This document shows, one piece after another, positions 16,824 to 33,419 of a stretch of DNA of 33,419 nucleotides. Under the pieces are notes generated by a model, which was given only the letters and a program-made list of their open reading frames with translations, searched no databases and was not told where the DNA came from. A program made the position numbers and the translations under genes. The stretch comes from Rubrobacteraceae bacterium (GTDB lineage: Bacteria; Actinomycetota; Rubrobacteria; Rubrobacterales; Rubrobacteraceae), in assembly GCA_050698295.1 (NCBI GenBank), contig JBOHBL010000057.1, forward strand, positions 1 to 33,419, given 5' to 3'. Within the stretch, counting starts at the first letter, position 1, and the number at the start of each line of letters is the position of its first letter.

Positions 16824-18011
16824 TCAGCGTCCTTTCAACAGCGGGAAGAGCTTTACCGAACCATTTGGTTCCGGCGGCTCGGGTTTTTGGGGTTCGGGTT
16901 TCGGGGGTTTGGAGGGGATGAGGAGCTTTCCCTTCGATTTTTGGGCGTCCGCGATGCCCGCCCCGTAGTGCGTTATGGCCGAGCCGTTCTTCCTCGCCCC
17001 GGAGAGAAGCCCCGCGAGCAGAGCGTCGCCCCTCTTGCCCGTCTCGGCCAAGAGGCCCGCGGCCGTCCACGCCACGTTCGGGGTGGCCTGCGAGGTCCCG
17101 GACATCCGGATTAAGGTGGCCCGCGCCGAATACGAAAGCACCGATACCCCCGAATGCGCGATGTCCACGTGCGCCCCGTGGCACGAAAACGAGGCCCGGC
17201 GGTCTGAGGCTCTGTCGAAGGCCCCGACCGCGATGGCCGAGCGGCATCCGCCGGGGAACCTCTTCGGGTTGCCCTTCTGGGCCTCGTTTCCGCTCGCGCA
17301 GAAGACGAGGACGCCTTTGTCCCTGGCGCGTCGGATCGCCTGCTCGTAAGCGGCCTCGTTGCCGGGACCCGAAAGCGACATGCTGATGATGTCGGCGCCG
17401 GAGTCCACGGCCCAATGGATGGCGGCTATCACACCCGACGTTCCGCCGGAGCCGTTGTTCGCAAGCACCGCGCCGTGCAAGAGTTTGGCCTTGTCCGGGA
17501 GCGCGGTGCAGGCGCAGTGCGAGCCGTGATCGTTATTCCCTCCGAGAGCCGAGCCCCCAACCCACGACTTATGCCCGACGATGTAGTTTCGGAGCATCCG
17601 GGCGGTGGCGGCCCCCAGCGCGGTGTCCAGCACGGCGACTTTGACGCCCGCGCCTTGCTTTCCAGCGGAGCTTCTCAGCCACGTCGAGCGGCCATAGTTC
17701 GTGTCCTCCGTGGGCGGGATGGCCGGGAAGTTCGCGACGCTCGCCACCTCGTCCATCAGCTCCGTGCCGCGCTCGACCCAGCCCTCCGCGACCGCCTCGG
17801 TCTCCTCCTCGATCTCGATGAGGTTGCTCGATCTCGCGTAGGCTTGCGCTCCCTCGTCGGTGAGGTCCACGCTTAGCTGGCGCATCTCCCCGATCTCGGC
17901 GTGGTGCATCTCGCGGGGATTTCGCTGGTAAGCGCGCGCCACGTCCCGCTCTTCGGGCGGAATGACCCGGCAAGAATAGATGTACGTCTTCGTGTTTTCG
18001 GTTTCAGCCAC
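16824..18011 (-). CDS. Subtilisin-like serine protease (peptidase S8) with I9-like propeptide and no signal peptide
   Basis: D/H/S triad motifs VAVLDTA, NDHGSHCA and MSGTSQATP. I prefer the GTG start at 18011 (VAETENTKTYIY..), because the purine-rich GGAGAGGAGGGAGGAGAAGGAG ends 7 nt upstream. The ORF is open up to ATG 18116, but those 35 codons are Arg-rich. The stop lies 1 nt from the start of the downstream hydrolase. Confidence 0.8.
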   Translation of the reverse strand: MAETENTKTYIYSCRVIPPEERDVARAYQRNPREMHHAEIGEMRQLSVDLTDEGAQAYARSSNLIEIEEETEAVAEGWVERGTELMDEVASVANFPAIPPTEDTNYGRSTWLRSSAGKQGAGVKVAVLDTALGAATARMLRNYIVGHKSWVGGSALGGNNDHGSHCACTALPDKAKLLHGAVLANNGSGGTSGVIAAIHWAVDSGADIISMSLSGPGNEAAYEQAIRRARDKGVLVFCASGNEAQKGNPKRFPGGCRSAIAVGAFDRASDRRASFSCHGAHVDIAHSGVSVLSYSARATLIRMSGTSQATPNVAWTAAGLLAETGKRGDALLAGLLSGARKNGSAITHYGAGIADAQKSKGKLLIPSKPPKPEPQKPEPPEPNGSVKLFPLLKGR

Positions 18012-18225
18012 CTCAAAGCTCCTTCTCCTCCCTCCTCTCCACTTTCCACGACCCACGAAGACCTCGATCTCCCCATACACCCTGCGCGGCATGCGCCGTC
18101 GGATTCGCCGGCGCATTTCGATGTGGCGCGACTACCTCGTACATGCTCTTTCCCGTTCGCGTTGACGCGATGCCAATGTGCTCCACTCCATACCTTTCGA
18201 TGCGCCGAGGTAGCCGCTTCTCGTA

Positions 18226-19042: not shown

Positions 19043-20596
19043 TCACTTCTCGCGCATGTCCGCCAGCGCCTCAATCGCGCAGTTGCGCCCCGGCGCGCCG
19101 AAGACCGCGCCGCCCGGCCACGTTCCGGCCCCGCACAGGTAGAGGTTTCGGATCCGGGTTTCGTAACCTTTGAAGCCTGGGGCGGGGCGACCTCCGAACA
19201 TCCTCTCCGGTGTCATCTCGCCGTGGAAGATGTTGCCGCCCGTTATGCCGATCCTCGCCTCTATGTCCGGCGGTCCCAGAACTTCGATGTGTTCGATGGC
19301 GTCCGGCAAATTCGGGGCATACTCCGCGAAAGTGGCGATGATGCGGTTCCCGATCTCCTCGCGCCTCGATCCCCAACTCCCCTCCGCGAGCCGGTACGGA
19401 GCGTACTGGCAAAACAGGCTCATCGTATGTTTGCCTTTCGGCGCAAGCCCATCTTCCGTCGCGCTCTGAATGTACGCTTCCATGAATGGTTTTTCCGAGG
19501 GGCGGCCTTCTTTGCAATCCTCCCACGCCCGCTGCAAATAGTCGATGGAGGGGTTGATGACGATGGCGCCGGTGTGCTGAGGCCCGACCTCTTTCCCCGG
19601 CAGCGCGGCGAAGTCCGGCAACTCTCCGAGAGCCAGAAGCACCTTGACGACGGAGCCCTCGACGGGAGCTTTCTTCACGCCTTCGACGAGGTCGTTCGGC
19701 AAATGCCTTTCGCCTACCATGCCGAGTAAGGCGCGTTGCGGGTCGGCGTTGGAGAGGATGGCGTCCGCTGTGAAGGAGCGCCCGTCGCGGAGGGTGACGG
19801 CGCGGGCTTCGCCGTCTTCGACCTCGATCCGCTCCACCTCCGCATCCGTGACTATTTCGACCCCACGCTCCCTCGCCGCCGAAGCGATGCTTTCGGCGAC
19901 CGCGCCCATCCCGCCCCGGACGTAGCCCCACGCGCCCTGATGGCCTTCGATGTTGCCGAGGATGTGGTGGAATTTTATGTAGGCCGTTCCGGGGTCGCGG
20001 GGACCCGCGCTCGTCCCGATCACACCCCCGACCGAGAGCGGGGCCTTCACTTCCTCCGACTCGAAGAACTCATCCAGTAGCTCCGCAACGCTCGCCTGAG
20101 TGAGTCGCTTCCAATCTTCATCACCCTCCGGCCCGTCGAAAGCGGCTTCGAGTTCGTCTTCGGCGGGAGCTTGTCGTTTTATCAGCGGACGCATCCGGGC
20201 GATGATGCGGTCCCACATCTCCCAGTAGGCGTCGTGGTTCTTTGCGTCCTTCTTCGAGAACTTCCGGATCTCCGCTTTCGTCTTCTCGCCGTCGAGGTGG
20301 GATATGAGGCACCGTCCATTAGGGAACGGGGTGAAATACTGCGGATCGAGGGGACGCACGTCGTAACCGTGGCGCGGGAGCTCGAGGTCCCGGATCACCT
20401 CCCCCAACAGCAGGCTGCACACGTACGAGCAGGTCGAGAGCCTGTATCCGGGCCACATTTCTTCCGTCACCGTCGCCCCGCCGATGACCTCGCGCCGCTC
20501 CAGAACGAGGACCTTCTTCCCGGCCTTCGCCAGATACGCCGCCGAAATGAGCCCGTTGTGTCCCGCTCCGACCACGATGGCGTCGTATCTTCTCAT
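19043..20596 (-). CDS. FAD-dependent oxidoreductase, phytoene-desaturase (CrtI)/COG1233, PYROXD2-like family
   Basis: Part of ORF 19043..21040. The real start is ATG 20596 (MRRYDAIVVGAGHNGLISAAYLAKAGKKVLVLERREVIGG, a dinucleotide-binding fold). This ATG overlaps the stop of the upstream GNAT gene (ATGA). The ORF extension upstream is in the GNAT shadow frame. Confidence 0.8.
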   Translation of the reverse strand: MRRYDAIVVGAGHNGLISAAYLAKAGKKVLVLERREVIGGATVTEEMWPGYRLSTCSYVCSLLLGEVIRDLELPRHGYDVRPLDPQYFTPFPNGRCLISHLDGEKTKAEIRKFSKKDAKNHDAYWEMWDRIIARMRPLIKRQAPAEDELEAAFDGPEGDEDWKRLTQASVAELLDEFFESEEVKAPLSVGGVIGTSAGPRDPGTAYIKFHHILGNIEGHQGAWGYVRGGMGAVAESIASAARERGVEIVTDAEVERIEVEDGEARAVTLRDGRSFTADAILSNADPQRALLGMVGERHLPNDLVEGVKKAPVEGSVVKVLLALGELPDFAALPGKEVGPQHTGAIVINPSIDYLQRAWEDCKEGRPSEKPFMEAYIQSATEDGLAPKGKHTMSLFCQYAPYRLAEGSWGSRREEIGNRIIATFAEYAPNLPDAIEHIEVLGPPDIEARIGITGGNIFHGEMTPERMFGGRPAPGFKGYETRIRNLYLCGAGTWPGGAVFGAPGRNCAIEALADMREK

Positions 20597-21342
20597 TCGC
20601 CGAAGAACTCCTTTCGCGGCAGCTTCATCAAGTGAGCCGGCGCGGATTCTCCGGGGACGTGTATCGTCTTGAAATAGCGGAACCCCGCTTTCTCGTAGGC
20701 CCGAATCGCCGCCCTGTTCTCCGGCTCCGGGTCGATCACGCAGACCTCGATGCTCTCGTCGGCGAAGACTACCTCTTCGAGAAAACGCCGGATGATCAAT
20801 GCTCCGAGTCCGCGATACAGAAATTCCTCCTCCCCGATGAACAGGTCCACCCCGGCGGAGTCCTCGATGCCGATGAGCCTGTTGCACTCCTCGTCGTCGG
20901 AGACGCGGTACGTCTGGATGTAGCCGATGGGAAGTTCTCCGTGGAGGATGAGAAAAGGTTCCACCGGCTCTTTCCCTTCGATATACGCGGCGTACCTCTT
21001 TTCGACCTCCTCGTAAGGACCGACGTCGTCGTACCACCACCGGGCGACATGCGGGGTGTGCAGCCAGTGGTGCGCAAGGGGGATGTGCGCCCGCCTCATG
21101 CGCTCGAAGCCGATCTTCGACGAGTCCGGATTCCGGGCCTGATGCCGGATCTCTTCTCTACGCTTCTCCACAAGACGGTCGTGTTCCCGTTGCTCTGCGA
21201 AGGTATCTCCACGGGAGATCACACCGAGCCTGTCGAGCAACTCCATCCCTTCTTCGTCTTCGGGAGTTTCGGGGGCAAGCTCGACGAACTCGACCTCTTC
21301 GCCGTCCCGGACCCTGCGACCTCTGAGCGTCTCGCGTTTCAT
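20593..21342 (-). CDS. GNAT N-acetyltransferase, AAC(6')-Ib-like, with ~75-aa charged N-terminal extension
   Basis: ..HHWLHTPHVARWWYDD..PFLILHGELPIGYIQTYRV..GVDLFIGEEEFLYRGLGALIIRRFLE..VIDPEPENRAAIRAYEKAGF.. is co-linear with the AAC(6')-Ib-type GNAT fold. Start is ATG 21342 or GTG 21345. Confidence 0.75.
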   Translation of the reverse strand: MKRETLRGRRVRDGEEVEFVELAPETPEDEEGMELLDRLGVISRGDTFAEQREHDRLVEKRREEIRHQARNPDSSKIGFERMRRAHIPLAHHWLHTPHVARWWYDDVGPYEEVEKRYAAYIEGKEPVEPFLILHGELPIGYIQTYRVSDDEECNRLIGIEDSAGVDLFIGEEEFLYRGLGALIIRRFLEEVVFADESIEVCVIDPEPENRAAIRAYEKAGFRYFKTIHVPGESAPAHLMKLPRKEFFGE

Positions 21343-21360
21343 CACGGGCGACTCTCTTCA

Positions 21361-22779
21361 TCAATCGCCATACGGATACCACCACTCTTTCTTCTCGACT
21401 CTCGGGTCTATGTGGACGTGCTTGGACTCCTGAAACGCTTCGAGCCCTTCGCGTCCGAGTTCGCGCCCGACGCCGCTCCCTTTCTGACCGCCGAAGGGAG
21501 CGGCGTCGTTGTCGGTGAGGGGGTCGTTGATCCAAACCGTCCCCGCCCGTATCTCCCTCATGCACCTCAGCATGTTCCCGAAGTCTTCGGTGTACACGTT
21601 CGCCCCAAGCCCGTACGGCACGGAGTTCGCATACTCGATGGCCTGGTCCAGACTGCCCACTTCGACGACAGGGACGACGGGACCGAAGGTCTCCTCGCTC
21701 ATCACGCTCATGGAGGACTCCACGCCGGTGAGAATGGTCGGCTCGTAGAAATAGCCCCGCTCTCCCCACCGCTCGCCTCCGACTATGACCTTCGCGCCTC
21801 TGTCCTTCGCCTCGCCGACGTGGCGCTCGACCTTCTCGCGTCCCTTCGCGTTGATCATGGGCCCGATGTCCGTGGTTTTGTCCATCGGATCGCCGATGTT
21901 GAGCGACTCCACGTAGCTCTTCGACGCCTCGATGAAATCGTCGGCGACGTTTTCCATAACGTAAAACCGCTCGGAGGAGGTGCAGACCTGACCGGCGTTG
22001 AGACATGCCGCCCAGACCGCTCCCTGTGCCGCGACCTCGATGTCCGCCACGTCGTCGCAGATGATGAACGGGTCCTTGCCGCCGAGCTCGAGGTTCGCCC
22101 GGATGAGACGTTCGGCGGCTATGGTCCCGACCTTCCTCCCCGTATCCTGGCTGCCGGTGAAGGCGACCATGTCCACCTCTGGGTGGCGGACGAGCATCTC
22201 TCCGACATCGCCCGCGCCGTGGACGATTTGGAGCAAGCCGTCCGGCAGACCTTCGATCAGGTCGACCATCCGCCGCGTCGCGAGCGGGGTTTCTTCGGAA
22301 GGTTTCAGAAGGACCGCGTTCCCGGCGGCGAGCGCCGGGGCGACTTTCCACGCCGCCAGAAGGAGCGGGTAGTTCCACGGCACGATGCACGCTACGGTCC
22401 CGATGGGCTCTTTTATGACGAGCGCGAGTTGCTGGGTCTCGATGGGAGCGGGCAGGTAGCCGACGGAATCGCGGGCGATCTCGGCGTAGTAGTCGAAGCA
22501 GGCCGCCGTCCAGTCCACCTCGTCGCGGTTCTCGATGAACGGTTTGCCGCCCTCTTTGGTCATGATCTCCGCGAGTTCGTCGCCGCGGCCGCGGAGGTCG
22601 CGGGCGAGGTCGTGGAACAGCTCCGCTCTCTCAAGCCCGGAGACGCCGCGCCATTCACGGAAAGCTTCTTTCGCCTTTTGCGTCGCGCGGTTCAGTTCCT
22701 CGCGGCTCGTGACGGGGACTTCGGCGAAAGCCTCGCCGGTGGACGGGTCGAAGACCCGCAGTGAATCGCCTCCGGGCAT
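21361..22779 (-). CDS. NAD(P)+-dependent aldehyde dehydrogenase
   Basis: ALDH motifs: VPWNYPLL, FTGSQDTGRKV, catalytic Glu in LELGGKDP, catalytic Cys in NAGQVCTSSER, and EETFGPV. AGGAG lies before ATG 22779, 12 nt after the gabD stop. Confidence 0.9.
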   Translation of the reverse strand: MPGGDSLRVFDPSTGEAFAEVPVTSREELNRATQKAKEAFREWRGVSGLERAELFHDLARDLRGRGDELAEIMTKEGGKPFIENRDEVDWTAACFDYYAEIARDSVGYLPAPIETQQLALVIKEPIGTVACIVPWNYPLLLAAWKVAPALAAGNAVLLKPSEETPLATRRMVDLIEGLPDGLLQIVHGAGDVGEMLVRHPEVDMVAFTGSQDTGRKVGTIAAERLIRANLELGGKDPFIICDDVADIEVAAQGAVWAACLNAGQVCTSSERFYVMENVADDFIEASKSYVESLNIGDPMDKTTDIGPMINAKGREKVERHVGEAKDRGAKVIVGGERWGERGYFYEPTILTGVESSMSVMSEETFGPVVPVVEVGSLDQAIEYANSVPYGLGANVYTEDFGNMLRCMREIRAGTVWINDPLTDNDAAPFGGQKGSGVGRELGREGLEAFQESKHVHIDPRVEKKEWWYPYGD

Positions 22780-22791
22780 GTTCGTCTCCTT

Positions 22792-24258
22792 TTACAGGTT
22801 GATCGCCACGTACTTCGTCTCCAGAAACTCCTCGATGCCTTCCGCTCCGCCTTCGCGCCCGAACCCGGAGTGCTTTATGCCTCCAAACGGCGCGCTCGCA
22901 TTGGAGACCATGCCCTGGTTCAGCCCGACCATCCCGGTTTCGAGCCCTTCGCACACTCGAAGCGCGCGCTTGAGGTTGCTGGTGTAGACGTAGGCGACGA
23001 GGCCGTACTCGGTGTCGTTGGCGGCGGCGACGGCGTCTTCTTCGGAGTCGAAGGAGGCGACCGGAGCGACGGGACCGAAGATTTCCTCTTTGAGGAGGTT
23101 CGAGTCGGGGGAGACGTCGCCCAGCACCGTGGGCTGATAAAAGTATCCCGCTCCATCGACCTTTCCTCCTCCGACGAGGGCCGCCGCGCCTTTGCCGAGG
23201 GCGTCCTCGACGAGGTCGGAGACTTTGGAGCGTTGATCGTCGTCGATGAGGGGGCCGACCTGCACGTCCTCTTCGGTGCCGCGCCCGACCTTCATCTGCC
23301 CCATTTTGGCGGCGAGTTTTTCGGCGAACTCGTCGGCGACGGAGCCTGAGACGTGGAAGCGGTTCGCGGCGGTGCAGGCTTCGCCGATGTTCCGCATCTT
23401 GGCGACTATGGCGCCTTCGACGGCGGCGTCCACGTCGGCGTCGTCGAAAACTAGGAACGGGGCGTTGCCGCCGAGTTCCATCGAGACGCGCAGTATCTGC
23501 TCCGCCGACTGCTCGACGAGCTTGCGTCCCACCTCCGTCGAGCCGGTAAAGGAGAGCTTGCGGGCTCTCGGGTCGGAGATCAAGGGCGACATCACCGACC
23601 CCGACGACGAACTCGTCACGATGTTGAGGACGCCGCCAGGGAGTCCGGACTCTTCGAGGATCTGGGCGAGGGCGAGCATGCACAGCGGGGTTTGCTGGGC
23701 GGGCTTGACGACCATCGCGCAGCCCGCCGCCACCGCCGGCCCTATCTTCCTCGTTCCCATCGCCATCGGGAAGTTCCACGGCGTGATGAGGATGCACGGC
23801 CCCACCGGCTGCTTCATCGTGAGCATGCGTCCCGCGCCGGCGGGCGGTACGGCGTAGCGGCCTTCGATCCTCACGGCCTCCTCGGAGAACCAGCGGAAGA
23901 ACTCGGCGGCGTAAGCTATCTCCGCCTTCGACTCCGCGACGGTCTTTCCCATCTCCAGCGTCATGAGGAGGGCGAGTTCGTCGGTCCTCTCGACGATCTT
24001 CTCGAAGGCGCGGCGCAGTATTTCTCCCCGCTCCCGAGGCGGGTGGTTCTTCCATTCCTTCTGCGTCTCGTGCGCCGCGTCGAGGGCGGCCATCGCGTCA
24101 TCCGGAGTTCCGTCGGCGACTTCGCAGAGCGCCTCTCCGGTGGAGGGGTCTTCGACGGCGAGTTTCCCGTTTCCGGTAGCGTCGCGCCACTCGCCGCCGA
24201 TGAAGAGCCGCTTGTTCACGCGGTCGAGGACCTGCTGTTCGGAGGTCGCTGTGGTCAT
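22792..24258 (-). CDS. gabD: Succinate-semialdehyde dehydrogenase
   Basis: ..LFIGGEWRDATGNGKLAVEDPSTGEALCEVADGTPDDAMAALDAAHETQKEW.., ITPWNFP, MELGGNAP, GEACTAANR and the ..GGIKHSGFGREG.. ending match GabD-type ALDHs. Confidence 0.85.
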   Translation of the reverse strand: MTTATSEQQVLDRVNKRLFIGGEWRDATGNGKLAVEDPSTGEALCEVADGTPDDAMAALDAAHETQKEWKNHPPRERGEILRRAFEKIVERTDELALLMTLEMGKTVAESKAEIAYAAEFFRWFSEEAVRIEGRYAVPPAGAGRMLTMKQPVGPCILITPWNFPMAMGTRKIGPAVAAGCAMVVKPAQQTPLCMLALAQILEESGLPGGVLNIVTSSSSGSVMSPLISDPRARKLSFTGSTEVGRKLVEQSAEQILRVSMELGGNAPFLVFDDADVDAAVEGAIVAKMRNIGEACTAANRFHVSGSVADEFAEKLAAKMGQMKVGRGTEEDVQVGPLIDDDQRSKVSDLVEDALGKGAAALVGGGKVDGAGYFYQPTVLGDVSPDSNLLKEEIFGPVAPVASFDSEEDAVAAANDTEYGLVAYVYTSNLKRALRVCEGLETGMVGLNQGMVSNASAPFGGIKHSGFGREGGAEGIEEFLETKYVAINL

Positions 24259-24319
24259 GGAGCGCTCCTTTCCTGTTCGTCTCGCTCGGGCTCACGAACA
24301 GTCTACCCATTCTGAGCTA

Positions 24320-24347
24320 TTGGCAATTAGCGGTTAGCCATTAGCAT
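24320..24347 (+). repeat. Heptad array ttggcaa ttagcgg ttagcca ttagcat (inverted copy of 14789..14816)
   Basis: Read directly. It lies 3 nt from the palindrome at 24351..24378. Confidence 0.8.
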
Positions 24348-24350
24348 AAA

Positions 24351-24378
24351 GTGGAGACGTAGCATGCTACGTCTCTAC
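24351..24378. repeat. 28-bp palindrome gtggagacgtagcatgctacgtctctac (copy 2)
   Basis: Same core as 14628..14655 with one substitution, which would be a G-U pair in RNA. Confidence 0.85.
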
Positions 24379-24419
24379 AATGACAACGCGGAAACCGGCT
24401 CGCCGAAAACCGCTTGAGA

Positions 24420-25856
24420 TCACACCTCCTCCGGGACGCGCCGCGGCTCGCTCCCGGTCAGACGACGCTCCCAGGCCGCCATGCGTTCCTCGGAGGGCTT
24501 CGGTGTGATGAGGCTCGCCACGACGAAGACCACGAGGCTCGTGAGCATCCCGACGTAGATCGGGGAGTTCGCCAGAAGCCCGTACATGACCATGAGCGCG
24601 ACGACCACGACACTACTCACCACCATCGACGCCAGAGCCCCGGTCGCGGTCGCTCGCCTCCAGAAAAGAGCGCCCACTATCGGGACGAACAGCGCGCCGG
24701 TGAGGAGGTTGTAAGCGACCGTCAAAGCCCCGACCACGTCGCTCACCGCGAGCGAAACCACGAGCACCCCCACCCCCACGAGCAGCGTGCAAACACGGCT
24801 CACCATGACCTTGTTATGTTCGTCTCTCGCGAGGAACCCCTCGTACACGTCGTTGGCGAGGATGGTGGAGGAGGCGAGAAGGCCGGCGCTCGCGGTGGAC
24901 ATCACCGCCGCGAGGGCCGCCGAGAGGACCAGGCCGGTGAGTCCCACGGGGAGGAACTCGATGGCTACTCTGGCGAAGGCGTTGTCGGCGGTCTGGAGGT
25001 TCGGGAGGAGGACCCTCGCGGCAGAGCCGATGAGAGCGCCCGCCAGAGCGTAGACGAGGCAGTACACTCCGGCCACGATGCTCCCCCACCGGGCTATAGA
25101 CGGGCTTCGGGCCGTGAAGACGCGCTGCCAGATGTCCTGCCCGATCATCAGCCCGAAGAAGAAAAGCAGGAAGTAGGTGAAGATCGTCGCTCCGCCGATG
25201 GCCGTGAGGTCGAAGTACGACGCGGGCAACTCCGCTGCCATGCCGGAGAACCCTCCCGCACGGAGGATCGTCACGGGCAGCAACACAAAGAAGATGCCCA
25301 CCGTCATCACGCAGAACTGCAAAATATCCGTCAGGGTGATCGACCACATGCCCCCGGCGACCGAGTACGCGACGACGATGCCCCCGGCCACGAGGATCGC
25401 CAGGGTGGGCGGGATGTCCAGCGCGACCCCGAACACCGTGTCGATGGCGATGGTGGAGGTCACGGCGATCATCAGCGCGTAAGCGGCTATGACGATGGCG
25501 CTGATCAGGCGCGAAGAGCCGCCGTAGCGGTTCTCGAGCATCTCCGAGACGGTGTACACGCCGAGACGCGAGAGCCGGGTGGACATCAAAACGCCGAGGG
25601 CTATGACGCCAAGCCCGATCATGAAGACCAGCCACATCCCCGAGACGCCGTTCTCATAACCCAAACTCACCCCGCCGATGGTCGAAGCCCCTCCGAGCAC
25701 CACCGCGCTCAAACAGCCTATGTACATGAAAGGCCCAAGTCTCCGCCCGGCCACCAGGTAGTCCTCGGCGTCCCTCGCCCGCCTCAGTCCCCAGTAACCT
25801 GCCCCGATCATCACGGCGAAGTAGACCAGCATTACAAAATAATCCAGCAAACTCAT
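24420..25856 (-). CDS. Sodium:solute symporter (SSS/SSF family)
   Basis: MSLLDYFVMLVYFAVMIGAGYWGLRRARDAEDYLVAGRRLGPF.. is the classical SSF N-terminus. About 13 hydrophobic segments. No SD is present upstream of the ATG; see the IS insertion finding. Confidence 0.85.
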   Translation of the reverse strand: MSLLDYFVMLVYFAVMIGAGYWGLRRARDAEDYLVAGRRLGPFMYIGCLSAVVLGGASTIGGVSLGYENGVSGMWLVFMIGLGVIALGVLMSTRLSRLGVYTVSEMLENRYGGSSRLISAIVIAAYALMIAVTSTIAIDTVFGVALDIPPTLAILVAGGIVVAYSVAGGMWSITLTDILQFCVMTVGIFFVLLPVTILRAGGFSGMAAELPASYFDLTAIGGATIFTYFLLFFFGLMIGQDIWQRVFTARSPSIARWGSIVAGVYCLVYALAGALIGSAARVLLPNLQTADNAFARVAIEFLPVGLTGLVLSAALAAVMSTASAGLLASSTILANDVYEGFLARDEHNKVMVSRVCTLLVGVGVLVVSLAVSDVVGALTVAYNLLTGALFVPIVGALFWRRATATGALASMVVSSVVVVALMVMYGLLANSPIYVGMLTSLVVFVVASLITPKPSEERMAAWERRLTGSEPRRVPEEV

Positions 25857-27070
25857 AAAGAAACCGGGTTGGAGACCGCTCCCAGGCTTCGCCGGTAGCG
25901 GAGGAAAGCCCGGCGCTTCACCACCTCTCCATACTTGACTACTCGTGGCAAGATGCGGGCATGAAACTGACCGTCCAGGTGAAGCTCCTTCCGTCCAAAG
26001 AACAGGCCGACGCGCTCAAGGAGACGCTTCGCCGATCCAACGCCGCGGCCAATGAGATCAGCGCCGTCGCGTGGGAGCATTCCTCGTTCGGCCAGTACAA
26101 GCTCCACAAGCTGGCCTACCACGCGGTAAGGGCTTCGACGGGGCTCACCTCGCGGATGGTGATCCGAGCCATCGCCAAAGTCGCCGACGCCTACAAGCTC
26201 GACAGGAGGCGCAAGCGGGCCTTCAAGGCGCTTGGCGCTATCGCCTACGACGACCGCATCCTCCGCTGGAGGGATGAGGAGGTCTCCATCTGGACCGCCG
26301 AGGGGCGGCAGGCCATCCCGTTCGTTTGCGGCGAGAGGACAGCCGAGCTTCTGGAGTTCAGGCAGGGCGAGTCCGACCTCGCGCATCGGGGCGGCAAGTG
26401 GTTTCTGCTGGCCACGGTCAACGTCGAGGAGCCGCCTCCGGGCACTCCCGAAGACTGGGTCGGGGTCGACTTCGGCGTCGCCAACATCGCCACCGATTCC
26501 GACGGGGAGGCGCGCGCCTCGGAGCGAACCGAGAACTCCCGCGAACGCTACGAGCGCATCCGAAGCAAACTTCAGGCGGCGGGGACGAGCAACGCCAAAC
26601 GCCACCTCAAGAATCTCGCCGGGCGCGAGAGGCGCATGAAGCGCGACGCCAACCACGTCATCTCCAGGCGGCTGGTTTCCAAAGCCGCCGACTCCGACAG
26701 GGGAATCTGTCTCGAAGACCTTCAAGGCATCCGCAAGCGGACAACGGTTAGGAAGGCGCGGCGTTCGAGGCACGGCAAGTGGGCCTTCGGGGAGCTGAGG
26801 GCTTTCGTGGAATACAAGGCCAGGCTCGCCGGAGTGGCTTTCGCGGTGGTCGATCCCCGCCACACGTCGCGAACCTGCAATGAGTGCGGGCATTGCGAGA
26901 AGGCCAACCGCCGGAGTCGGCGCGAGTTCGTGTGCAAAGCCTGCGGGTTTGTTGCGTCCGCGGATGAGAACGCCGCCGTGAACATACGGAGCGGGGCATC
27001 CGTCATGATGCCTATCGCGGCTGGGGCTGGTCCTCAAGCCGCAAGCTGTCTGCTTTAGCTGACGGTTCAT
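25857..27070 (+). mobile_element. TnpB-only IS200/IS605-type (IS1341-like) element, 1,214 bp, flanked by TCAT
   Basis: tcat at 25853-25856 and at 27067-27070. Removing 25857..27070 recreates an SD + ATGA-coupled junction between the two flanking minus-strand genes. The element carries only tnpB and no tnpA. The exact ends could shift by up to 4 bp because of the repeat. Confidence 0.6.
25961..27058 (+). CDS. tnpB: RNA-guided endonuclease TnpB (IS605 OrfB family)
   Basis: MKLTVQVKLLPSKEQADALKETL.. N-terminus. RuvC-I Asp in WVGVDFGV, RuvC-II Glu in ICLEDLQG, zinc finger CNECGH..CKACGF, RuvC-III Asp in SADENAAVNI. All three catalytic positions are present. Confidence 0.9.
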   Translation: MKLTVQVKLLPSKEQADALKETLRRSNAAANEISAVAWEHSSFGQYKLHKLAYHAVRASTGLTSRMVIRAIAKVADAYKLDRRRKRAFKALGAIAYDDRILRWRDEEVSIWTAEGRQAIPFVCGERTAELLEFRQGESDLAHRGGKWFLLATVNVEEPPPGTPEDWVGVDFGVANIATDSDGEARASERTENSRERYERIRSKLQAAGTSNAKRHLKNLAGRERRMKRDANHVISRRLVSKAADSDRGICLEDLQGIRKRTTVRKARRSRHGKWAFGELRAFVEYKARLAGVAFAVVDPRHTSRTCNECGHCEKANRRSRREFVCKACGFVASADENAAVNIRSGASVMMPIAAGAGPQAASCLL

Positions 27071-28023
27071 GACCGATTGTCCTCCTTCTTTCGCCACGCG
27101 ACGAGGCTCAGGAAATCGTGGGCGATGTTCGCCGCGAGCAGGGCCGTGATCTGGGCCGGGTCATAAGCCGGATACACCTCCACCACATCGAACCCGACGA
27201 TGTCGAGCCCGGCGAGACTCCGGACAAATTGCTGCGATTCCCAGCTCGTGAATCCCCCGACCTCCGGCGTCCCGGTACCCGGAGCGAATGCCGGGTCCAC
27301 GAAGTCCACGTCGAAGGAGACGTAGGTTTTGGAATCTCCCACCCTTTCCCGGATCCGCTCGATGACGGCTTCGATGCCGATCTTCCTCACCTCGTCCGTC
27401 GTGACCAGGTCGAAGCCCATGTCTCTGGCATCCTCCCAGTCCCGTTCATCGTAGATGGAACCGCGCATCCCAACCTGAATGGAGTTTTCCGGCTTGAGCA
27501 AACCTTCCTCGACGGCGCGAACGAACGGTGTGCCGTGCGTGTGCTTCTCTCCGAAGTACGAGTCCCACGTATCCGGGTGCGAGTCGAACTGGACGAGTGA
27601 GAGCGGACCGTGCTTTTTGGCGGCGGCGCGAAGCTCCGGCAGGGCGATCGCGTGATCTCCACCCAGGACGATGGGAACGACTCCGGCCTCGTGGATGGGT
27701 TGCAGTCCCTCTTCTATTCTCTCGTAACTCGCCTCGATGTAACCGGGCACAACGGGAACGTCGCCGTAGTCGATGGCGGAGATATGGTCGAAGATAGCCA
27801 CCCCCAGGCCGGAGTTGTGGTGACGTAGCAAATGGGAGGCGCTTCTTATCCCCTCCGGCCCGAAGCGAGCTCCGGCGCGGAAAGTCGCCCCCGTGTCGAA
27901 CGGCGCGCCTACTATGGCGACGTCGGCGTTTTGGAGGTCGTGGTTGTTCGGCAGGCGCATGAAGGTCCGCACGCCCGAGAAGCGCGGGGTCGTGAAAGAG
28001 TCTGCGGGTTCGTACCTGGTCAT
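27067..28023 (-). CDS. Ureohydrolase, agmatinase / guanidinobutyrase family (paralog 1)
   Basis: ..IVGAPFDTGATFRAGARFGP.., LGGDHAIA, QFDSHPDTW, SFDVDFVDPAFAPGTGTPE: the binuclear-Mn arginase-fold motifs are complete. AGGAGG lies before ATG 28023. Substrate cannot be read from the sequence. Confidence 0.85.
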   Translation of the reverse strand: MTRYEPADSFTTPRFSGVRTFMRLPNNHDLQNADVAIVGAPFDTGATFRAGARFGPEGIRSASHLLRHHNSGLGVAIFDHISAIDYGDVPVVPGYIEASYERIEEGLQPIHEAGVVPIVLGGDHAIALPELRAAAKKHGPLSLVQFDSHPDTWDSYFGEKHTHGTPFVRAVEEGLLKPENSIQVGMRGSIYDERDWEDARDMGFDLVTTDEVRKIGIEAVIERIRERVGDSKTYVSFDVDFVDPAFAPGTGTPEVGGFTSWESQQFVRSLAGLDIVGFDVVEVYPAYDPAQITALLAANIAHDFLSLVAWRKKEDNRS

Positions 28024-28125
28024 GTGTCTCCTCCTGTCGGAATCTTAGAGTATCTGGCCTTTTGCCGCGTCGGATGCCGGCCTGGAAGCCTGTGCGCGTC
28101 GCTCTTCGTCGAGCCCGTCGCCCTG

Positions 28126-28197
28126 CCCGCGATGCACGCTCCTCCGCTCATGCGGGCAGGATGCCCGCGCCCCTAGGGGAAAGCCATCTTCTCTCGG
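28126..28197 (+). repeat. REP-like intergenic repeat, copy 2
   Basis: cccgcgatgcacgctcctccgctcatgcgggcaggatgcccgcgcccc..ggaaagccatcttctctcgg. A 9-bp stem cctgcccgc (28122-28130) / gcgggcagg (28152-28160). Same orientation as the copy at 983..1056. Confidence 0.7.
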
Positions 28198-28214
28198 ATC
28201 CAGCTTGGAGATAC

Positions 28215-29255
28215 TCAGCTTTCGACATCTCTATGCGGTGGCGAACACCGAGCGCGTCGATGGGCGGTCCCGGAGAGCGCTTCGACGACTACCCTGTTGC
28301 CGGCCAGAGCCGTGATCCCGGCGTGGTCGTAGGGCGGGGAGACTTCGACCAGGTCCATGGCGCAAAGGTCCAGCGACTTTGCCACTTCGCGGACGGCCCA
28401 CAACAGCTCGCGGGTGGTCATGCCGCCGGGCTCGGGGGTCCCTGTGCCCGGTGCGAAGGCGGGATCCAGCACGTCGATGTCCACGGTCAGGTACGTCCGC
28501 GAGGCGCTCTTTTGGGCGTGTTCGATAGCGTCGGAGACGACGGCCTCGAGGCCGCGATCCAGAATCTCCCCCATAGTGTGCCAGCGGGCGCCGTGCTCCG
28601 TCATCCAGTCGAACTCTTCCTGAAGGTAGGAAAACCCGCCGCGCAATCCCACCTTCACCATGTTGCCCGGCTCTAAGAACCCTCGCTCGGCGGCGCGGGA
28701 AAACGGCGTCCCGTGGTGGTTGGTTCCCGAGTGCGAAGGCTCCACGTCGGCGTGGGTATCGAAGTGCACCACCGAAAACTCTTCGGGACCGAAATGTTCG
28801 GCGAGAGATTGCATCATCGGGGCCGAGACGGAGTGATCCCCTCCGAGGACGAAAGGCACAGCATCCGCGGCGAGGACCTCCGCCACCTTCTCCCGGAGGG
28901 CGTCGTGGGAGGCTTCCAGGTCGTTTGGGTCCGCCGGGGCGTCGCCGTAATCGACGACCTTGAGCGCCCGGAAGGGGTCGAGGTTGGCGAGTTCCGGGTG
29001 CTGGTAGGCGGGCTCTCCCACGTAGTCGGCTTCCCGGATGGCCCGCGGACCGAAACGCGCGCCGGGGCGGTACGTCGTCCCTCCGTCGAAGGGAGCGCCG
29101 ACTATCGCGGCGTCCGCTGTCGCAAGCTCATCGGGGTCGAGTGTCAGCGGGCACCGGAAGAACGTCACGCCGACGCCCGCGAAGGCGAACTCGTTCGGTC
29201 GGAAGGGGCGCATCTGTCCGCCTGCCTCCGTATCCGAACCTTCAATCCCTGTCAT
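28215..29255 (-). CDS. Ureohydrolase, agmatinase family (paralog 2, divergent)
   Basis: ..IVGAPFDGGTTYRPGARFGP.., LGGDHSVS, HFDTHADVE, TVDIDVLDPAFAPGTGTPE. In-frame starts at 29264, 29255 and 29213. I prefer 29255 because AAGGAG lies 9 nt upstream. The gene overlaps the 3' end of the NCS1 permease gene. Confidence 0.8.
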   Translation of the reverse strand: MTGIEGSDTEAGGQMRPFRPNEFAFAGVGVTFFRCPLTLDPDELATADAAIVGAPFDGGTTYRPGARFGPRAIREADYVGEPAYQHPELANLDPFRALKVVDYGDAPADPNDLEASHDALREKVAEVLAADAVPFVLGGDHSVSAPMMQSLAEHFGPEEFSVVHFDTHADVEPSHSGTNHHGTPFSRAAERGFLEPGNMVKVGLRGGFSYLQEEFDWMTEHGARWHTMGEILDRGLEAVVSDAIEHAQKSASRTYLTVDIDVLDPAFAPGTGTPEPGGMTTRELLWAVREVAKSLDLCAMDLVEVSPPYDHAGITALAGNRVVVEALSGTAHRRARCSPPHRDVES

Positions 29256-30690
29256 GTTCGTCATCTCCTTCCTTCACGGGGTCTGTGTATCCTCCCTTGC
29301 CGAGCGGTTGGATTATGAGCTTCGTGAGGAGGACGTGCGTGAGGGTTGCGGCGAGGAAGGCTGGCATCGAGGCGCTGACGAACCGGAAGAGGTTCGCCTG
29401 TTCGAAGCTGATCGGGTTCAGTAAGAGGAGGTACACGGCCGAGCCGACCGCGAGCGCGACCAGGGCCGCCGGGTTGAGGCCCGCCCAGAAGGCGTAACGC
29501 GAGCGGGACTCCGGCTCGTAGAGGCCGCGCGCGTCCAGGCGCCTGTGCCGGAGGAAGAAGAAGTCCACGAAGTAGATCCCGCACAGCGACGCCAGGGCGA
29601 CGCTCTGCCAGGCGAGGAACTTGAAGAAGTTATCGTAAACGGCAGCGGGGAAAAGCACCCCGACGGCTGCCGGCAGAAGGAGTGCGCCGGCCACCGTGGC
29701 CCACCGCAACCGCCTTGCGGTGTCGCCCAGTCGGAACAAAGCCAGGCACGACGAATAAGTCTGGCCCACCATGCTGGTCACGTTGGCGAAGGCGATGAAC
29801 ACGAGCGCGAGCGCGCCCAAAGCTACGCCGCCGAGTGGGATCATCCACACCGTCGGGTCGCTGTCTCCGAGGACGAGCGCGGCGAGGAGGCCGACGACGG
29901 AAGCCAGAGCAGCCGCCGCGTAAAGACCGAGCATGTTCGGCCAGAACGCCGCGCGCTGAGACTTCGTGAGCCGGGCGAGGTTGCCCATCAGGGGCCACCA
30001 TGAGAACCCGGCGGCGAGGTTCAACTCGATGGCGATCATGAAGTCGAGCGTTCTGTCGCCGAACGGCTCGATAGGCTCGGCGGCGCGGAGTTCGCTCCAC
30101 GAACTGCCCGCGAAGATCAGAACGAGCATCACAAGAGCTATTATCGCAAGCCCGGGAGCCACGATCTTGTTGACCCACTCGATGGAGGCCGGTCCTCTGA
30201 CGACCACGAACCAGGAGATTGCTATGGCGGCGAAGGCGAAAGCGATGACGACGGCGCCGTTCGGTCCTGCATCCGTAGCAAAGGCCGCGTTCGAGACGTT
30301 CGCCGCGGCTCGGCCGAACATGATGGCGAGTACGGCGTTCCATCCCCACGAGAGCAAAGGGACCACTGCAAGGACGATCAGGCGCGTGCCGTTGGAGCCA
30401 AACACGCTCCTGAGAGCCGTGTACTGCTCAAGGCCGTACTTCGCCGACGGGATGCAGGTGGCGAGAGCCATCAGGCTCACGGCTATCACGTTGCCGATGA
30501 GAATGGCGGCGATCCCCGTCTTCGCTCCCACGAAGAGAGCCGTCGAGCCGCCTATCAGGAACGCCCAAGTCGCAATCGCCAGCCCAACGTTGACCGAAGC
30601 GAAGTCCCAGAAACCCCAGATGCGCTCACGCCCGAGCACGGGCAAATCGTTGAAGGCGGCATCGCTTCGCGCCTGCTCCGGGCCGGTCAT
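29242..30690 (-). CDS. NCS1-family permease (cytosine/purine/uracil/allantoin/hydantoin-type)
   Basis: ..RIWGFWDFASVNVGLAIATWAFLIGGSTALFVG.. and a 12-helix hydrophobic profile typical of CodB-like NCS1 transporters. The ATG lies 1 nt after the stop of the 54-aa ORF (TAGGATG). Confidence 0.75.
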   Translation of the reverse strand: MTGPEQARSDAAFNDLPVLGRERIWGFWDFASVNVGLAIATWAFLIGGSTALFVGAKTGIAAILIGNVIAVSLMALATCIPSAKYGLEQYTALRSVFGSNGTRLIVLAVVPLLSWGWNAVLAIMFGRAAANVSNAAFATDAGPNGAVVIAFAFAAIAISWFVVVRGPASIEWVNKIVAPGLAIIALVMLVLIFAGSSWSELRAAEPIEPFGDRTLDFMIAIELNLAAGFSWWPLMGNLARLTKSQRAAFWPNMLGLYAAAALASVVGLLAALVLGDSDPTVWMIPLGGVALGALALVFIAFANVTSMVGQTYSSCLALFRLGDTARRLRWATVAGALLLPAAVGVLFPAAVYDNFFKFLAWQSVALASLCGIYFVDFFFLRHRRLDARGLYEPESRSRYAFWAGLNPAALVALAVGSAVYLLLLNPISFEQANLFRFVSASMPAFLAATLTHVLLTKLIIQPLGKGGYTDPVKEGDDEHDRD

Positions 30691-30691
30691 C

Positions 30692-30856
30692 CTAGTACCC
30701 CCACCAGTACATCACGACGACCGTGACGAGGATGATGGCGGCGAGAAGGACGAGATCCAGCGTCGGAAGGTCTCTCCGAGCGGGGTCGTCGTAATCCGGC
30801 GCCTCTATCCTCCGCAACCGTCGTTCGAGTTCCTCGTCGAACTCTCGGTCTCTCAT
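30692..30856 (-). CDS. 54-aa membrane peptide (charged N-terminus + one C-terminal TM helix), translationally coupled on both sides
   Basis: MRDREFDEELERRLRRIEAPDYDDPARRDLPTLDLVLLAAIILVTVVVMYWWGY. The ATG overlaps the amine-oxidase stop (ATGA), with AAGGAG 6 nt upstream. The stop lies 1 nt before the permease ATG. In the ORF track it is hidden inside the longer shadow ORF 30692..31600. Confidence 0.6.
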   Translation of the reverse strand: MRDREFDEELERRLRRIEAPDYDDPARRDLPTLDLVLLAAIILVTVVVMYWWGY

Positions 30857-32166
30857 GACTTTCTCCTTTCCCGAATGAGGCTTTTTACCTGTCGCGCGGT
30901 GGTCAGCCCGGACTCGATGGCCCCGTCTATGAAGCCGCCCCACAGGTTGCCGAGGTCGCTGCCGGCGAGGAAAACCCGCCCTTCCGGACGTTGCAGCTCG
31001 CGCAGGTAGCGGCTCGTTTGTCCCGGCCTGAGAAAGCCCCAGGTGCCGAGCGAGAACTCGTCGGTGGACCAGTCGTGGGCGCAGGTGTCTATCACCTCCA
31101 CCTCCGGGAGAAACTGCTTTACGGCGGAGGCGACCTGTTCCGGGTCGTTGCCGTCGAATTTTCCGGCGTCCGGGGCGAAAGCCACGAGGAGCTGACCGTC
31201 CGGGAGATCGTACTCCGACTGCACCCAGGTGAAAGGCGCGTCGTCCGGGGCGGTGGCGTAGATTTTCTCCAGCTCTCCTTTGACCCGCACCCAGACCTTC
31301 ACCCCTCGCGACGCCTGCCCCTCGGCGGCGACCGCGCGCTTGCCCTCGGAAAGCTCGGGCGTGAACCGTATTCGGCCAAGCGTGTTGAGAGGCACGGCCA
31401 CGATGGCGACTCTTGCCCTGACCGCCTCGCCTGCTCCGGTGGTCACGAGTACGCCGTCTTCTTTTTGCTCGACGAAGGAGACCGGGGTGGAGAGGCGTAT
31501 CTCCGCTCCCGCGTCTTCGGCGATGGCTGCGATGAGGCTGCGCGTGCCGGTCTTGAGCTTGAAGCGGGCGATGGCGTCCTGGGTGAGCGGGTTGCTCCAC
31601 TTCGCGGGCGAGAACCAGCGCAGAGACGACACGAGCCCGCCGAGCCGGGACGGGCTGTGGCTGTTGGTCGCGAGTTGCCCGGAGAGGATCGCCCGCTCCT
31701 CGGGAGACAGTTCGAGCTTTTCGAGCCGGTCTTCCGCGGAGAGACCGTCTATGGCCTCGATGGCCTCTTTGTCACGCAGCGGGTCGTGGGGGTGCTCCAG
31801 AGCGTCTTCGAATCCGGCGCGGAACTTCTCCACTCCCCGGTTGAGGAGGGTGTCGAACTCGGCCAGTTCGCCCGAATAGCGTTCGCCGTCGGCGAGCCAC
31901 ACGCACCGCTCGGGTGTGGGGCTCTCGGTGACTTCGATGCCGTAGCGTGTGACTTCGGCCCAGACGTGAGGTTGGAGCCAGTGGATCCAACCACCTCCGA
32001 GCTCCACGTCCACGCCGGCGAACTCCGCCGTCCACGTGCGCCCGCCCAGCCGGTCGCGAGCTTCGAGGAGCAAGCAATTCCGGCCCGCGTTGCCGAGCTC
32101 CCGCGCGACCGTGACACCCGCGAACCCGCCCCCGACTATCACCGCGTCGAAGTCGTTGTTACTCAT
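30853..32166 (-). CDS. Flavin-containing amine oxidase (putrescine/monoamine oxidase family)
   Basis: FDAVIVGGGFAGVTVARELGNAGRNCLLLEARDRLGGRTWT.. is the FAD-binding amine-oxidase N-terminus. Near the C-terminus, ..GRVFLAGSD...GFIDGAIESG.. is typical of the family. Confidence 0.85.
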   Translation of the reverse strand: MSNNDFDAVIVGGGFAGVTVARELGNAGRNCLLLEARDRLGGRTWTAEFAGVDVELGGGWIHWLQPHVWAEVTRYGIEVTESPTPERCVWLADGERYSGELAEFDTLLNRGVEKFRAGFEDALEHPHDPLRDKEAIEAIDGLSAEDRLEKLELSPEERAILSGQLATNSHSPSRLGGLVSSLRWFSPAKWSNPLTQDAIARFKLKTGTRSLIAAIAEDAGAEIRLSTPVSFVEQKEDGVLVTTGAGEAVRARVAIVAVPLNTLGRIRFTPELSEGKRAVAAEGQASRGVKVWVRVKGELEKIYATAPDDAPFTWVQSEYDLPDGQLLVAFAPDAGKFDGNDPEQVASAVKQFLPEVEVIDTCAHDWSTDEFSLGTWGFLRPGQTSRYLRELQRPEGRVFLAGSDLGNLWGGFIDGAIESGLTTARQVKSLIRERRKS

Positions 32167-33419
32167 TTTCCGTCCTCCTTAGCCTCGAAGGGACGGCGAC
32201 CGAAGAAGCTTTCGCGCGAACCGACAAGCCGCCAGATGAACATCAGGATCACGCCCGCCAGAAAGGTGCCCGCCCCGATGACGAACGGCAGGCCAAGCCC
32301 TAAGAGGGAACTGCCGGTGTAGGAAGCGGTCGGGTCGGCGAGTTCGGGAACGGCGCGGATGAGGAGGAAGATGAGGGCCGTGGCCCCGAGCAGCGGAGCG
32401 AGGCCCATGAACACGAAGTTCTTCACGCTCTTGAAAAGCTCTTTCCGGTAGTAAATGGCGCAGGAGATTCCCACGAGCGTGTAATAGAAAGCTATGAGCA
32501 GCGTCAGCGCGGAGAGGGTGTCGAAGAGGAAGTTCTGCGAGAAGACGTTGAGCGGCACGTACCACGCCGTGGCGAGAGTCCCGATGGCGATGGCCGCCAC
32601 GTGGGGTGTGCGGAAGCGGGGATGCACTTCGCCGAGCCTCGCCGGGAGCGCCCGCGCGCGGGCCATCGAGAGGGCGGTGCGCGAGGCCGAGACGATCACG
32701 GTCTGCGTCGAGGCAAGCCCGGAAGTGAACACGGCGAGTACCACGAGCTTGCCCCACGTCGAGCCGAGGACGCCGGCGGCGAGGGTGCTCAGGATGGCGT
32801 CGTCGTCGGCGAATCGGCCCACGGTCTCCGGCCCCCCGAAGGCGACCACCGCCGTGGTCACGGCGACGTAGGTGACGAGGAGTATGACCGTGCTCGCCAC
32901 GGCCGCCAGCCCGGGAGCCGACGCGCTATGCTCGGTCTCTTCGTTGAGCGTGAGCGTGACCTCCCATCCCCAGTAGATGAAGACCGCGATCAGGAGCCCG
33001 GTAACCAGCGCGCCTCCATCGGAGACGGCGAACGGCGAGAACCACGAGGCTTCCGGCGCCACCGAGCTTGCCTGGGCGCTCCCGGTGTAGACCCGAAACA
33101 GCGCGATCACCGCGAACACGAGCAGCGCCCCGACCTGAGCCGCGATCAGGACGTTCTGGAAACGGGCCGAGGGTTCGACGCCGTATACGCAGATGGCCGT
33201 CGCCACGGCGATGAAGAGTACGGCCAGCGCACTCACCGCCGCCTTCGATGTCGCGGCGGACTCCCACCCGATGAACAGCAAGCCGTAGCGGGCGGCGACG
33301 TCCGCGAGAGAGCCGATCACGAACACCAGAGAGATGCCCATGGCCCACCCGCCCATCCAGCCTGCCCACGGTCCCAGCGCCCTGGTGGCCCACGCGAAGG
33401 TGGTGCCGCAGTCCTGATC
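32163..33419 (-). CDS. APC-superfamily amino acid / polyamine permease (5' end outside the window)
   Basis: The frame is open to the window edge (..GTTFAWATRALGPWAGWMGGWAMGISLVF..). There are multiple TM segments. The C-terminus ..FEAKEDGK carries the AAGGAGG SD for the next gene, and its TGA overlaps that gene's ATG. Confidence 0.8.
   Translation of the reverse strand, partial: DQDCGTTFAWATRALGPWAGWMGGWAMGISLVFVIGSLADVAARYGLLFIGWESAATSKAAVSALAVLFIAVATAICVYGVEPSARFQNVLIAAQVGALLVFAVIALFRVYTGSAQASSVAPEASWFSPFAVSDGGALVTGLLIAVFIYWGWEVTLTLNEETEHSASAPGLAAVASTVILLVTYVAVTTAVVAFGGPETVGRFADDDAILSTLAAGVLGSTWGKLVVLAVFTSGLASTQTVIVSASRTALSMARARALPARLGEVHPRFRTPHVAAIAIGTLATAWYVPLNVFSQNFLFDTLSALTLLIAFYYTLVGISCAIYYRKELFKSVKNFVFMGLAPLLGATALIFLLIRAVPELADPTASYTGSSLLGLGLPFVIGAGTFLAGVILMFIWRLVGSRESFFGRRPFEAKEDGK

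Follow-up and report, generated by a model that had tools for sequence, protein, structure and literature searches.

A tnpB element between a ureohydrolase and a symporter gene

The 33,419-nt stretch of Rubrobacteraceae DNA analysed here (the window) carries on its minus strand an agmatinase/guanidinobutyrase-like ureohydrolase gene (27067-28023, 318 aa; Pfam Arginase, 1.3e-94) followed by an intact gene for an SSS-family symporter (24420-25856, 478 aa; Pfam SSF). Between the two lies a plus-strand tnpB gene (25961-27058, 365 aa). We are confident that positions 25857-27073 (plus strand) are a TnpB-only element of the IS200/IS605 family with an IS1341-like layout, 1,217 bp long, non-autonomous and inserted 3' of a TCAT motif (25853-25856). 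It is a compact, ordinary member of an already known type and leaves the current picture of TnpB biology unchanged; its value is that of a clean natural case, in which the ends, target, scaffold, guide and empty site can be read from the sequence and cross-checked against about 20 relatives. An earlier note on this DNA was right in substance, but it misplaced the right boundary, and what it deduced from that boundary was wrong as well.

We found the two flanking genes side by side in other members of the family. The ureohydrolase, used as query against species-representative genomes, returned 80 loci, the closest of which were all from Rubrobacter or Rubrobacteraceae metagenome-assembled genomes; orthologues in the closest of these loci and in the homologue search are 72-87% identical. 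In 18 Rubrobacteraceae loci a symporter orthologue (73-81% identity) lies directly downstream of the ureohydrolase, and none of these loci has a tnpB. The junction is an ATGA overlap in two (L012, L031), a GTGA overlap in one (L026) and an 8-nt ATGGGTAR overlap in three (L007, L015, L044), and elsewhere a spacer of a few bases or of 40-90 nt. The symporter orthologues begin with M(G/N)(S/L)(A/L)LDY, which matches the MSLLDY of the window and marks the ATG at 25856-25854 as the native start. This adjacency supports a formerly contiguous ureohydrolase-symporter junction with the element as an insertion into it. The TnpB-only IS200/IS605-type insertion into a former gene junction that the earlier note had described is thus upheld by the 18 loci and by the TnpB domains; the alignment with related genomes that it had proposed returned the contiguous pair, with ATGA overlaps in some loci, spacers in others and no same-species empty site.

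Several points weigh against this reading. The ureohydrolase homologue search recovered no uninterrupted locus of the same species, the best orthologues being 86-87% identical, and the empty site is a reconstruction from sequence, not an observed locus. A second copy of the exact element was not found, the nearest TnpB being 82% identical, and no TnpA gene was found in the 33-kb window. Frame arguments cannot separate a right end at 27070 from one at 27073, only 3 nt apart, and the choice rests on comparative evidence. Rfam holds no family matching the RNA described below: a scan of 25000-28000 gave chance-level matches only and no omega-RNA family, so that the search with omega-RNA models suggested earlier came back empty. 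Blastn and covariance-model searches, which covered the window and 732 kb of fetched loci, likewise turned up neither a second copy nor a solo end. In favour of the reading, the identical insertion is present, base for base, on an independent Logan contig (L001). An exact-protein look-up gave no record for TnpB or the symporter, and found the ureohydrolase only on the Logan contig with the same insertion.

A TnpB with intact nuclease motifs

TnpB contains the Pfam domains OrfB_IS605 (PF01385) and Cas12f1-like_TNB (PF07282), and the closest of the more than 3,900 homologues found is 82% identical. Its RuvC triad, D170/E252/D335, aligns with the catalytic residues of the solved Cas12f 9nzq, TnpB structures also being matched, and a CxxC..CxxC zinc finger is present (C306/C309, C325/C328). 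Motif check and structure alignment agree here with the intact RuvC D/E/D and zinc finger claimed earlier, and we saw neither the loss of RuvC catalytic residues nor the C-terminal truncation that mark TldR-type derivatives. The G+C content at third codon positions (GC3) is host-like (0.82).

The gene occupies nearly the entire element. In many relatives (L083, L088, L092, L094, L102, L103, L106, L109, L110) its stop codon is the TGA within the terminal TTGAC, so that the omega-RNA scaffold falls entirely within the frame, which stops 1 nt short of the element's final base. The window gene ends 15 nt earlier than in most relatives, by a frame difference, at a TAG (27056-27058) in the loop of the right-end hairpin (helix C, below).

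A scan of 25700-27250 for sigma-70 promoter and intrinsic-terminator consensus found nothing. The aligned left ends do share two -10-like boxes upstream of tnpB (25925-25960), (C/T)ATACTTGA and, 6 nt before the start codon, CATAAT/CAAGAT. The consensus scan called neither, but these boxes may be promoter elements of tnpB, and the second would fit a leaderless mRNA. A 414-codon open frame (25853-27097, minus strand) runs antisense to all of tnpB. Its GC3 is 0.63, against the 0.82 of tnpB, and in all likelihood it reflects the high G+C content and is no gene.

An alternative is that this is a stranded or domesticated copy, immobile or lacking an active TnpB ribonucleoprotein, which is merely tolerated or whose RNA or protein has been taken over by the host, say for antisense or RNA-guided regulation of the ureohydrolase/symporter junction. 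Such a copy would fit with the lack of a TnpA in the window, with a single copy being seen and the same insertion recurring in a second assembly, with a guide and scaffold that run antisense to the ureohydrolase mRNA at its 3' end as well as to the former Shine-Dalgarno sequence, and with the shortened tnpB frame. However, unlike TldR-type derivatives the protein keeps its catalytic residues and zinc finger, the gene is host-like in GC3, both ends retain the hairpins and the guide/cleavage-site complementarity required for TnpA action, all helices of the RNA scaffold are kept, and relatives occupy many unrelated loci, so that the family is or recently was mobile. We regard a stranded copy as quite unlikely, and an ordinary non-autonomous TnpB-only insertion as by far the better account of the locus.

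Ends, target and transposition signals

To place the ends we drew on metagenome, ENA, JGI and viral contigs for relatives, whose TnpB is 45-82% identical; the viral contigs gave only two distant relatives, and a tblastn search of plasmids returned relatives below 50% identity that were useless for boundaries. On the left, similarity begins directly after TCAT (11 loci) or TCAC (four loci), that is, after TCAY in 15 of 15, with nothing conserved upstream; the left end proper, before tnpB, is 104 nt long (25857-25960). On the right, similarity runs through AAGC-hairpin-GGT(AGT or TCA)TGAC and stops just after GAC in about 20 elements from unrelated surroundings, with more than 15 independent contexts among them, GAT, GGC or TAC rarely replacing GAC. 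This GAC falls at 27073 in the window, 3 bases beyond 27070; the flank after it is unrelated sequence, and there is no target-site duplication.

The subterminal structures of the element follow the rules worked out for IS608. There, the left cleavage site lies outside the element, 19 nt 5' of the left hairpin, the right one lies inside, 3' of the right hairpin, and each is found through base pairing with the tetranucleotide that precedes the corresponding hairpin on its 5' side (PMC3201880, PMC5934647). These guide tetranucleotides and cleavage sites pair as G_L AAAG with C_L TTAC (A+16:T-3, A+17:T-4) and as G_R GAAT with C_R TCAA (PMC3201880, PMC5934647). In the window, TCAT (25853-25856) stands as C_L and is followed by 19 nt, the last four of which are G_L GAGA (25872-25875, positions +16 to +19), and then by the left hairpin (25876-25901), whose positions are 82% paired among relatives with a covariation of 0.46, against 0.17 in shuffles and with 0 of 500 as high. 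The right-end signals (27042-27073) consist of G_R CAAG (27042-27045), a hairpin (27046-27065) that is 96.7% paired with compensatory changes in four of its five pairs, TTCA, and C_R TGAC (27070-27073).

We scored the pairing by matching guide position 1 with cleavage-site position 2, 2 with 1, and 4 with 4. Watson-Crick pairs make up 39 of 45 for G_L:C_L (15 loci) and 48 of 54 for G_R:C_R (18 loci), the latter falling to 18 of 54 if C_R is set 3 nt upstream. The final base of G_L is A in all 11 TCAT elements and G in three of the four TCAC elements (Fisher p = 0.009), and the right end of relative L087 pairs AAAG with TTAC by compensatory change. The fourth TCAC element (L113, flank 1396-1399) has G_L GAAA, from which TCAT would be predicted. 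Had the T mutated to C once the element was in place, the ATG of the neighbouring gene would have become GTG, and re-excision or TAM recognition might be impaired.

Sequence conservation, the covariation of a pseudoknot formed by the last bases (below) and the pairing of G_R CAAG with C_R TGAC together support a right end at 27073 and not at 27070. The boundary at 27070 proposed earlier is not sustained, the right ends of relatives lying at the equivalent of 27073. A tcat does stand at both places that the earlier note had named as a bracket (25853-25856 and 27067-27070), but the pair carries no meaning as a bracket: each strand of the window contains TCAT 114-115 times, and most relatives have AGTT at the position of the right-hand copy. 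By this comparison, the right-hand tcat reads as internal to the element, as one strand of the covarying pseudoknot, and not as a duplicated target. We also considered the left TCAT as part of the element and rejected it: its removal deletes starts, stops or overlaps of several flanking genes, destroying the start of the symporter gene and, in two relatives, the junctions FakA/DegV and DsbD/AhpC, and it contradicts IS608-type pairing.

An element of 25857-27070 that ends in its own TCAT cleavage site, with a guide from 27071 (gaccgatt..), is what remains of the earlier boundary. Its empty site would read ..CGGTCATGAGT.. (ureohydrolase ending ..DNRS before the stop), and uninterrupted loci would carry CAATCGGTCATGAGT or AATCGGTCATGAGT. 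TCAT is indeed found at both positions, the deletion of 25857-27070 likewise gives an in-frame ATGA overlap, and TTCAT near the right end recurs in three relatives (L084, L085, L099). Yet the next three bases are conserved across about 20 elements with unrelated flanks and belong to the covarying pseudoknot, G_R pairs with TGAC and far less well with the tetranucleotide 3 nt upstream, most relatives lack TCAT at that position, and the Shine-Dalgarno spacing of the restored junction would be 10 nt, against 7 nt at a sister junction in the window (32163). This shorter element is very unlikely. The guide and cleavage rules of IS608 and the guide-adjacent pseudoknot fix the boundary to the base, at 27073, and reasoning from a repeat at both ends is 3 nt off.

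With the ends placed in this way, the TCAT directly 5' of the left end is supported as the target and as the candidate transposon-associated motif (TAM), TCAY for the lineage, because TCAY precedes all 15 left ends and because the IS608 rule predicts the motif from G_L; the earlier proposal of TCAT as TAM and target gains support from the same evidence. Pairing and geometry also support mobilisation by a Y1 TnpA in trans. Least probable of all is another mobilisation system, such as IS607 with its serine recombinase, in which the TCAT would be a chance or selection-filtered flank: TnpB is known in IS607 elements too (PMC8612924), and neither type of TnpA is visible in the window, but the left hairpin lies 19 nt from the cleavage site and is preceded by a flank-pairing tetranucleotide exactly as in IS608, and the right end obeys the same rule, with compensatory changes at either end (AAAG:TTAC in L087, G_L ending in G in TCAC elements).

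A predicted omega-RNA and its guide

The right end of such an element is the 3' end of the omega-RNA scaffold, and the guide starts directly after it, outside the transposon (PMC10278001). We aligned the last 84-118 nt of 18 elements and obtained a predicted scaffold core of about 79 nt (26995-27073, plus strand). RNAalifold gave helices A (26995-26999 / 27008-27012), B (27017-27022 / 27036-27042) and C (27046-27050 / 27061-27065), the last being the right hairpin of the transposition signals. To these we added a pseudoknot between 27002-27007 (GUCAUG) and 27068-27073 (CAUGAC). Together, helices and pseudoknot comprise 25 pairs, with 97.5% of cells paired and compensatory changes at 19 pairs; the covariation score of 0.52 is reached by 0 of 500 shuffles, which score 0.18, and slid controls are 27-47% paired.

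The pseudoknot is GUCAAC:GUUGAC in most relatives, GUCAUG:CAUGAC in the window and two relatives (L084, L085), and GUAAAC:GUUUAC in L087. In the omega-RNA of ISDra2 a pseudoknot uses nucleotides -6 to -2, directly beside the guide (PMC10097598). The window sequence folded alone gives the same three helices and leaves CAUGAC unpaired. A covariance model built from the alignment (R1) matches the window only at 26990-27073, with 73.8 bits, and across the 732 kb of fetched loci it matches only the related elements. The scaffold is thus predicted to lie almost wholly within the tnpB reading frame and to end in a pseudoknot of the last six bases of the element.

A right end at 27073 sets the predicted start of the guide at 27074, in the right flank, and not at 27071; by the rule of PMC10278001, the guide would be cgattgtcctccttct (27074-27089, plus strand). 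The guide placed earlier at 27071-27086 was rightly sought in the right flank, and its start moves with the corrected boundary. The predicted guide is complementary to the last ureohydrolase codons in the mRNA, as well as to what was once the symporter's Shine-Dalgarno sequence. The antisense position of guide and scaffold to the ureohydrolase 3' end, as described earlier, holds by geometry, and what follows from geometry is not evidence of function.

On this account the element inserted 3' of a plus-strand TCAT that, on the minus strand, was the ATGA overlap of ureohydrolase and symporter. For mobility and RNA-guided action we infer the following course of events. To move, the element would depend on a Y1 TnpA provided in trans, which would bind the subterminal hairpins (25876-25901 and 27046-27065). 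DNA-DNA pairing would lead this TnpA to the cleavage sites, G_L GAGA pairing with TCAT and G_R CAAG with TGAC. The tnpB mRNA would be expressed and processed into an omega-RNA, with a scaffold of about 26995-27073 followed by flank sequence as guide from 27074. TnpB, acting as a nuclease with this RNA, may then cut copies of the empty site (TCAT followed by CGATTGTCCTCC..), and repair from the sister copy that bears the element would retain it. TCAT plus the predicted guide equals the reconstructed target, as would be expected for TnpB-mediated retention.

The empty site and the flanking genes

The last 7 nt of the present ureohydrolase gene (G TCA TGA on the minus strand, 27067-27073) are element sequence, and the protein now ends ..N R(CGG) S(TCA) before the TGA. 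Removal of 25857-27073 joins ..AAGAAGGAGGACAATCG to ATGAGTTTGCTG.. on the minus strand, or in short form ..GGAGGACAATCG to ATGAGT.., which is still an ATGA stop/start overlap. The ancestral ureohydrolase thus most likely ended in ..KKEDNR, its stop codon overlapping the symporter ATG. In an uninterrupted locus we would expect the strings CAATCGATGAGT and AATCGATGAGT, with GGAGGACAATCGATGAGTTTGCTGG as the search string. The GGAGG of the corrected empty site stands 7 nt from the ATG, and the layout AAGGAGGAC-N5-ATGAGT is that of the intact junction at 32163, between an APC permease and an amine oxidase gene, which reads aaggaggacggaaaATGAgt.

The deletion of 25857-27070 gives exactly the junction string that the earlier note had quoted, and its sequences for the intact APC-permease/amine-oxidase junction, of like design, and for the region now upstream of the symporter ATG (..ccaacccggtttcttt) were also correct. 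Insertion at an ATGA overlap stands, with a ureohydrolase that ended in ..DNR rather than ..DNRS and a Shine-Dalgarno spacing of 7 rather than 10 nt. The note had further explained the intact flanking frames by two copies of the motif. The left TCAT, as its reverse complement ATGA, does supply the symporter ATG, and would formerly have supplied the ureohydrolase TGA too; the present ureohydrolase TGA comes from the element's own end. As judged from the reconstructed junction, the insertion would add one residue to the ureohydrolase, its new stop being provided by the right end of the element. The symporter start is now parted by 1,217 bp from its Shine-Dalgarno sequence and the stop codon upstream; the gene keeps its ATG but loses that sequence and translational coupling, which may affect its expression.

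Two ureohydrolase homologues ending in ..VDNRSR (L107:3100-3140, L108:2560-2590) were considered as support for a ..DNRS terminus and rejected, as their codons and gene context differ. These are paralogues that lack a symporter downstream and are followed instead by a convergent gene of the opposite strand, and their resemblance to the ..EDNRS of the window appears coincidental.

The insertion lies within a long co-directional cluster (20593-33356, minus strand) that has the look of guanidino-compound or polyamine catabolism. The cluster includes an APC permease, a flavin amine oxidase, an NCS1-type permease, the SSS symporter, two aldehyde dehydrogenases, a GNAT acetyltransferase and two tandem Arginase-family paralogues (28215-29264 and 27067-28023). 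Elsewhere in the window, a 659-aa open reading frame (14843-16822, minus strand) with a host-like GC3 of 0.79 has no Pfam match; it adjoins a subtilase-family Peptidase_S8 gene (16824-18116).

Relatives at stop and start codons

TCAY is the reverse complement of RTGA. Applying these boundary rules to 13 relatives, we rebuilt their empty sites too. Two relatives split RTGA stop/start overlaps, one between FakA and DegV genes (L087:416-1630, ATGA) and one between DsbD_TM and AhpC-TSA genes (L113:1400-2632, GTGA). Three others sit at the TGA stops of long open reading frames (L103, 1903-3126, DUF6328; L086; L084), and two at start codons, namely of a PALP gene whose Shine-Dalgarno sequence has been split off (L110:1400-2632) and of RuvX (L095:695-1936). 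In several relatives, the upstream gene runs into the right end of the element and stops after about six codons at the TAA of the helix C loop, which explains the 18-nt overlaps of called genes with tnpB. The donated stop is thus a TGA in the window and a TAA from the helix C loop in relatives.

The window contains 404 TCAY sites, of which 54 lie outside the interiors of coding sequences, 10 are RTGA starts and six RTGA stops. A left flank that starts a long opposite-strand open reading frame is found in 6 of 15 family members, against 10 of all 404 TCAY sites in the window (p ~1e-6); against the 10 of 54 sites outside coding interiors, the excess is modest (p = 0.04). On the simplest reading, landing on RTGA largely reflects the target motif plus purifying selection, with no special strategy. 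It is rather unlikely that the lineage is adapted to opposite-strand stop and start codons, including 4-nt overlaps, with a right end shaped to donate an in-frame stop within 2-7 codons, so that insertion would be tolerated and perhaps uncouple operon genes in a regulatory way rather than simply disrupt them. In either case, a TCAY-targeting lineage repeatedly lands on RTGA codons, where coupling is lost and a new stop comes from the right end, with predictable consequences for operon expression.

Comparison with known systems

The closest model for the transposition signals is IS608 of Helicobacter pylori. Both elements lack terminal inverted repeats and target duplication, and have a fixed tetranucleotide outside the element and subterminal hairpins; in both, 19 nt separate the left cleavage site from the foot of the hairpin on its 3' side, and the right cleavage site is inside the element, 3' of the right hairpin, under the same pairing rule. 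The target is TTAC in IS608 and TCAT/TCAC here, and the right cleavage site comes 10 nt after the hairpin foot in IS608, whereas it follows after 4 nt (TGAC) here. The window element is also without tnpA, and tnpB fills nearly all of it.

For the RNA-guided part, the comparison is with ISDra2 of Deinococcus radiodurans. Alike are the RNA-guided RuvC nuclease, an omega-RNA encoded by the 3' part of tnpB together with the right end (predicted here), a guide right after the right end, and guide-adjacent nucleotides in a pseudoknot with an upstream segment. However, protein similarity is low (phmmer E = 4e-9), the TAM is TTGAT in ISDra2 and TCAY, as predicted, here, and the scaffold is 116 nt there against a core of about 79 nt here, where the pseudoknot forms with the first helix's loop. 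The window would thus carry a compact system made up of a TnpB of 365 aa and this short scaffold core, with TCAY as the predicted TAM.

AmaTnpB of Alicyclobacillus macrosporangiidus has an experimentally determined 4-nt TAM, TCAC, which is of the TCAY type, and a TCAY TAM is therefore not new. The likeness is one of TAM type, the flank in the window being TCAT and not TCAC. AmaTnpB also processes its own mRNA into omega-RNA, and in this the two may be counted alike, with such processing predicted for the window element.

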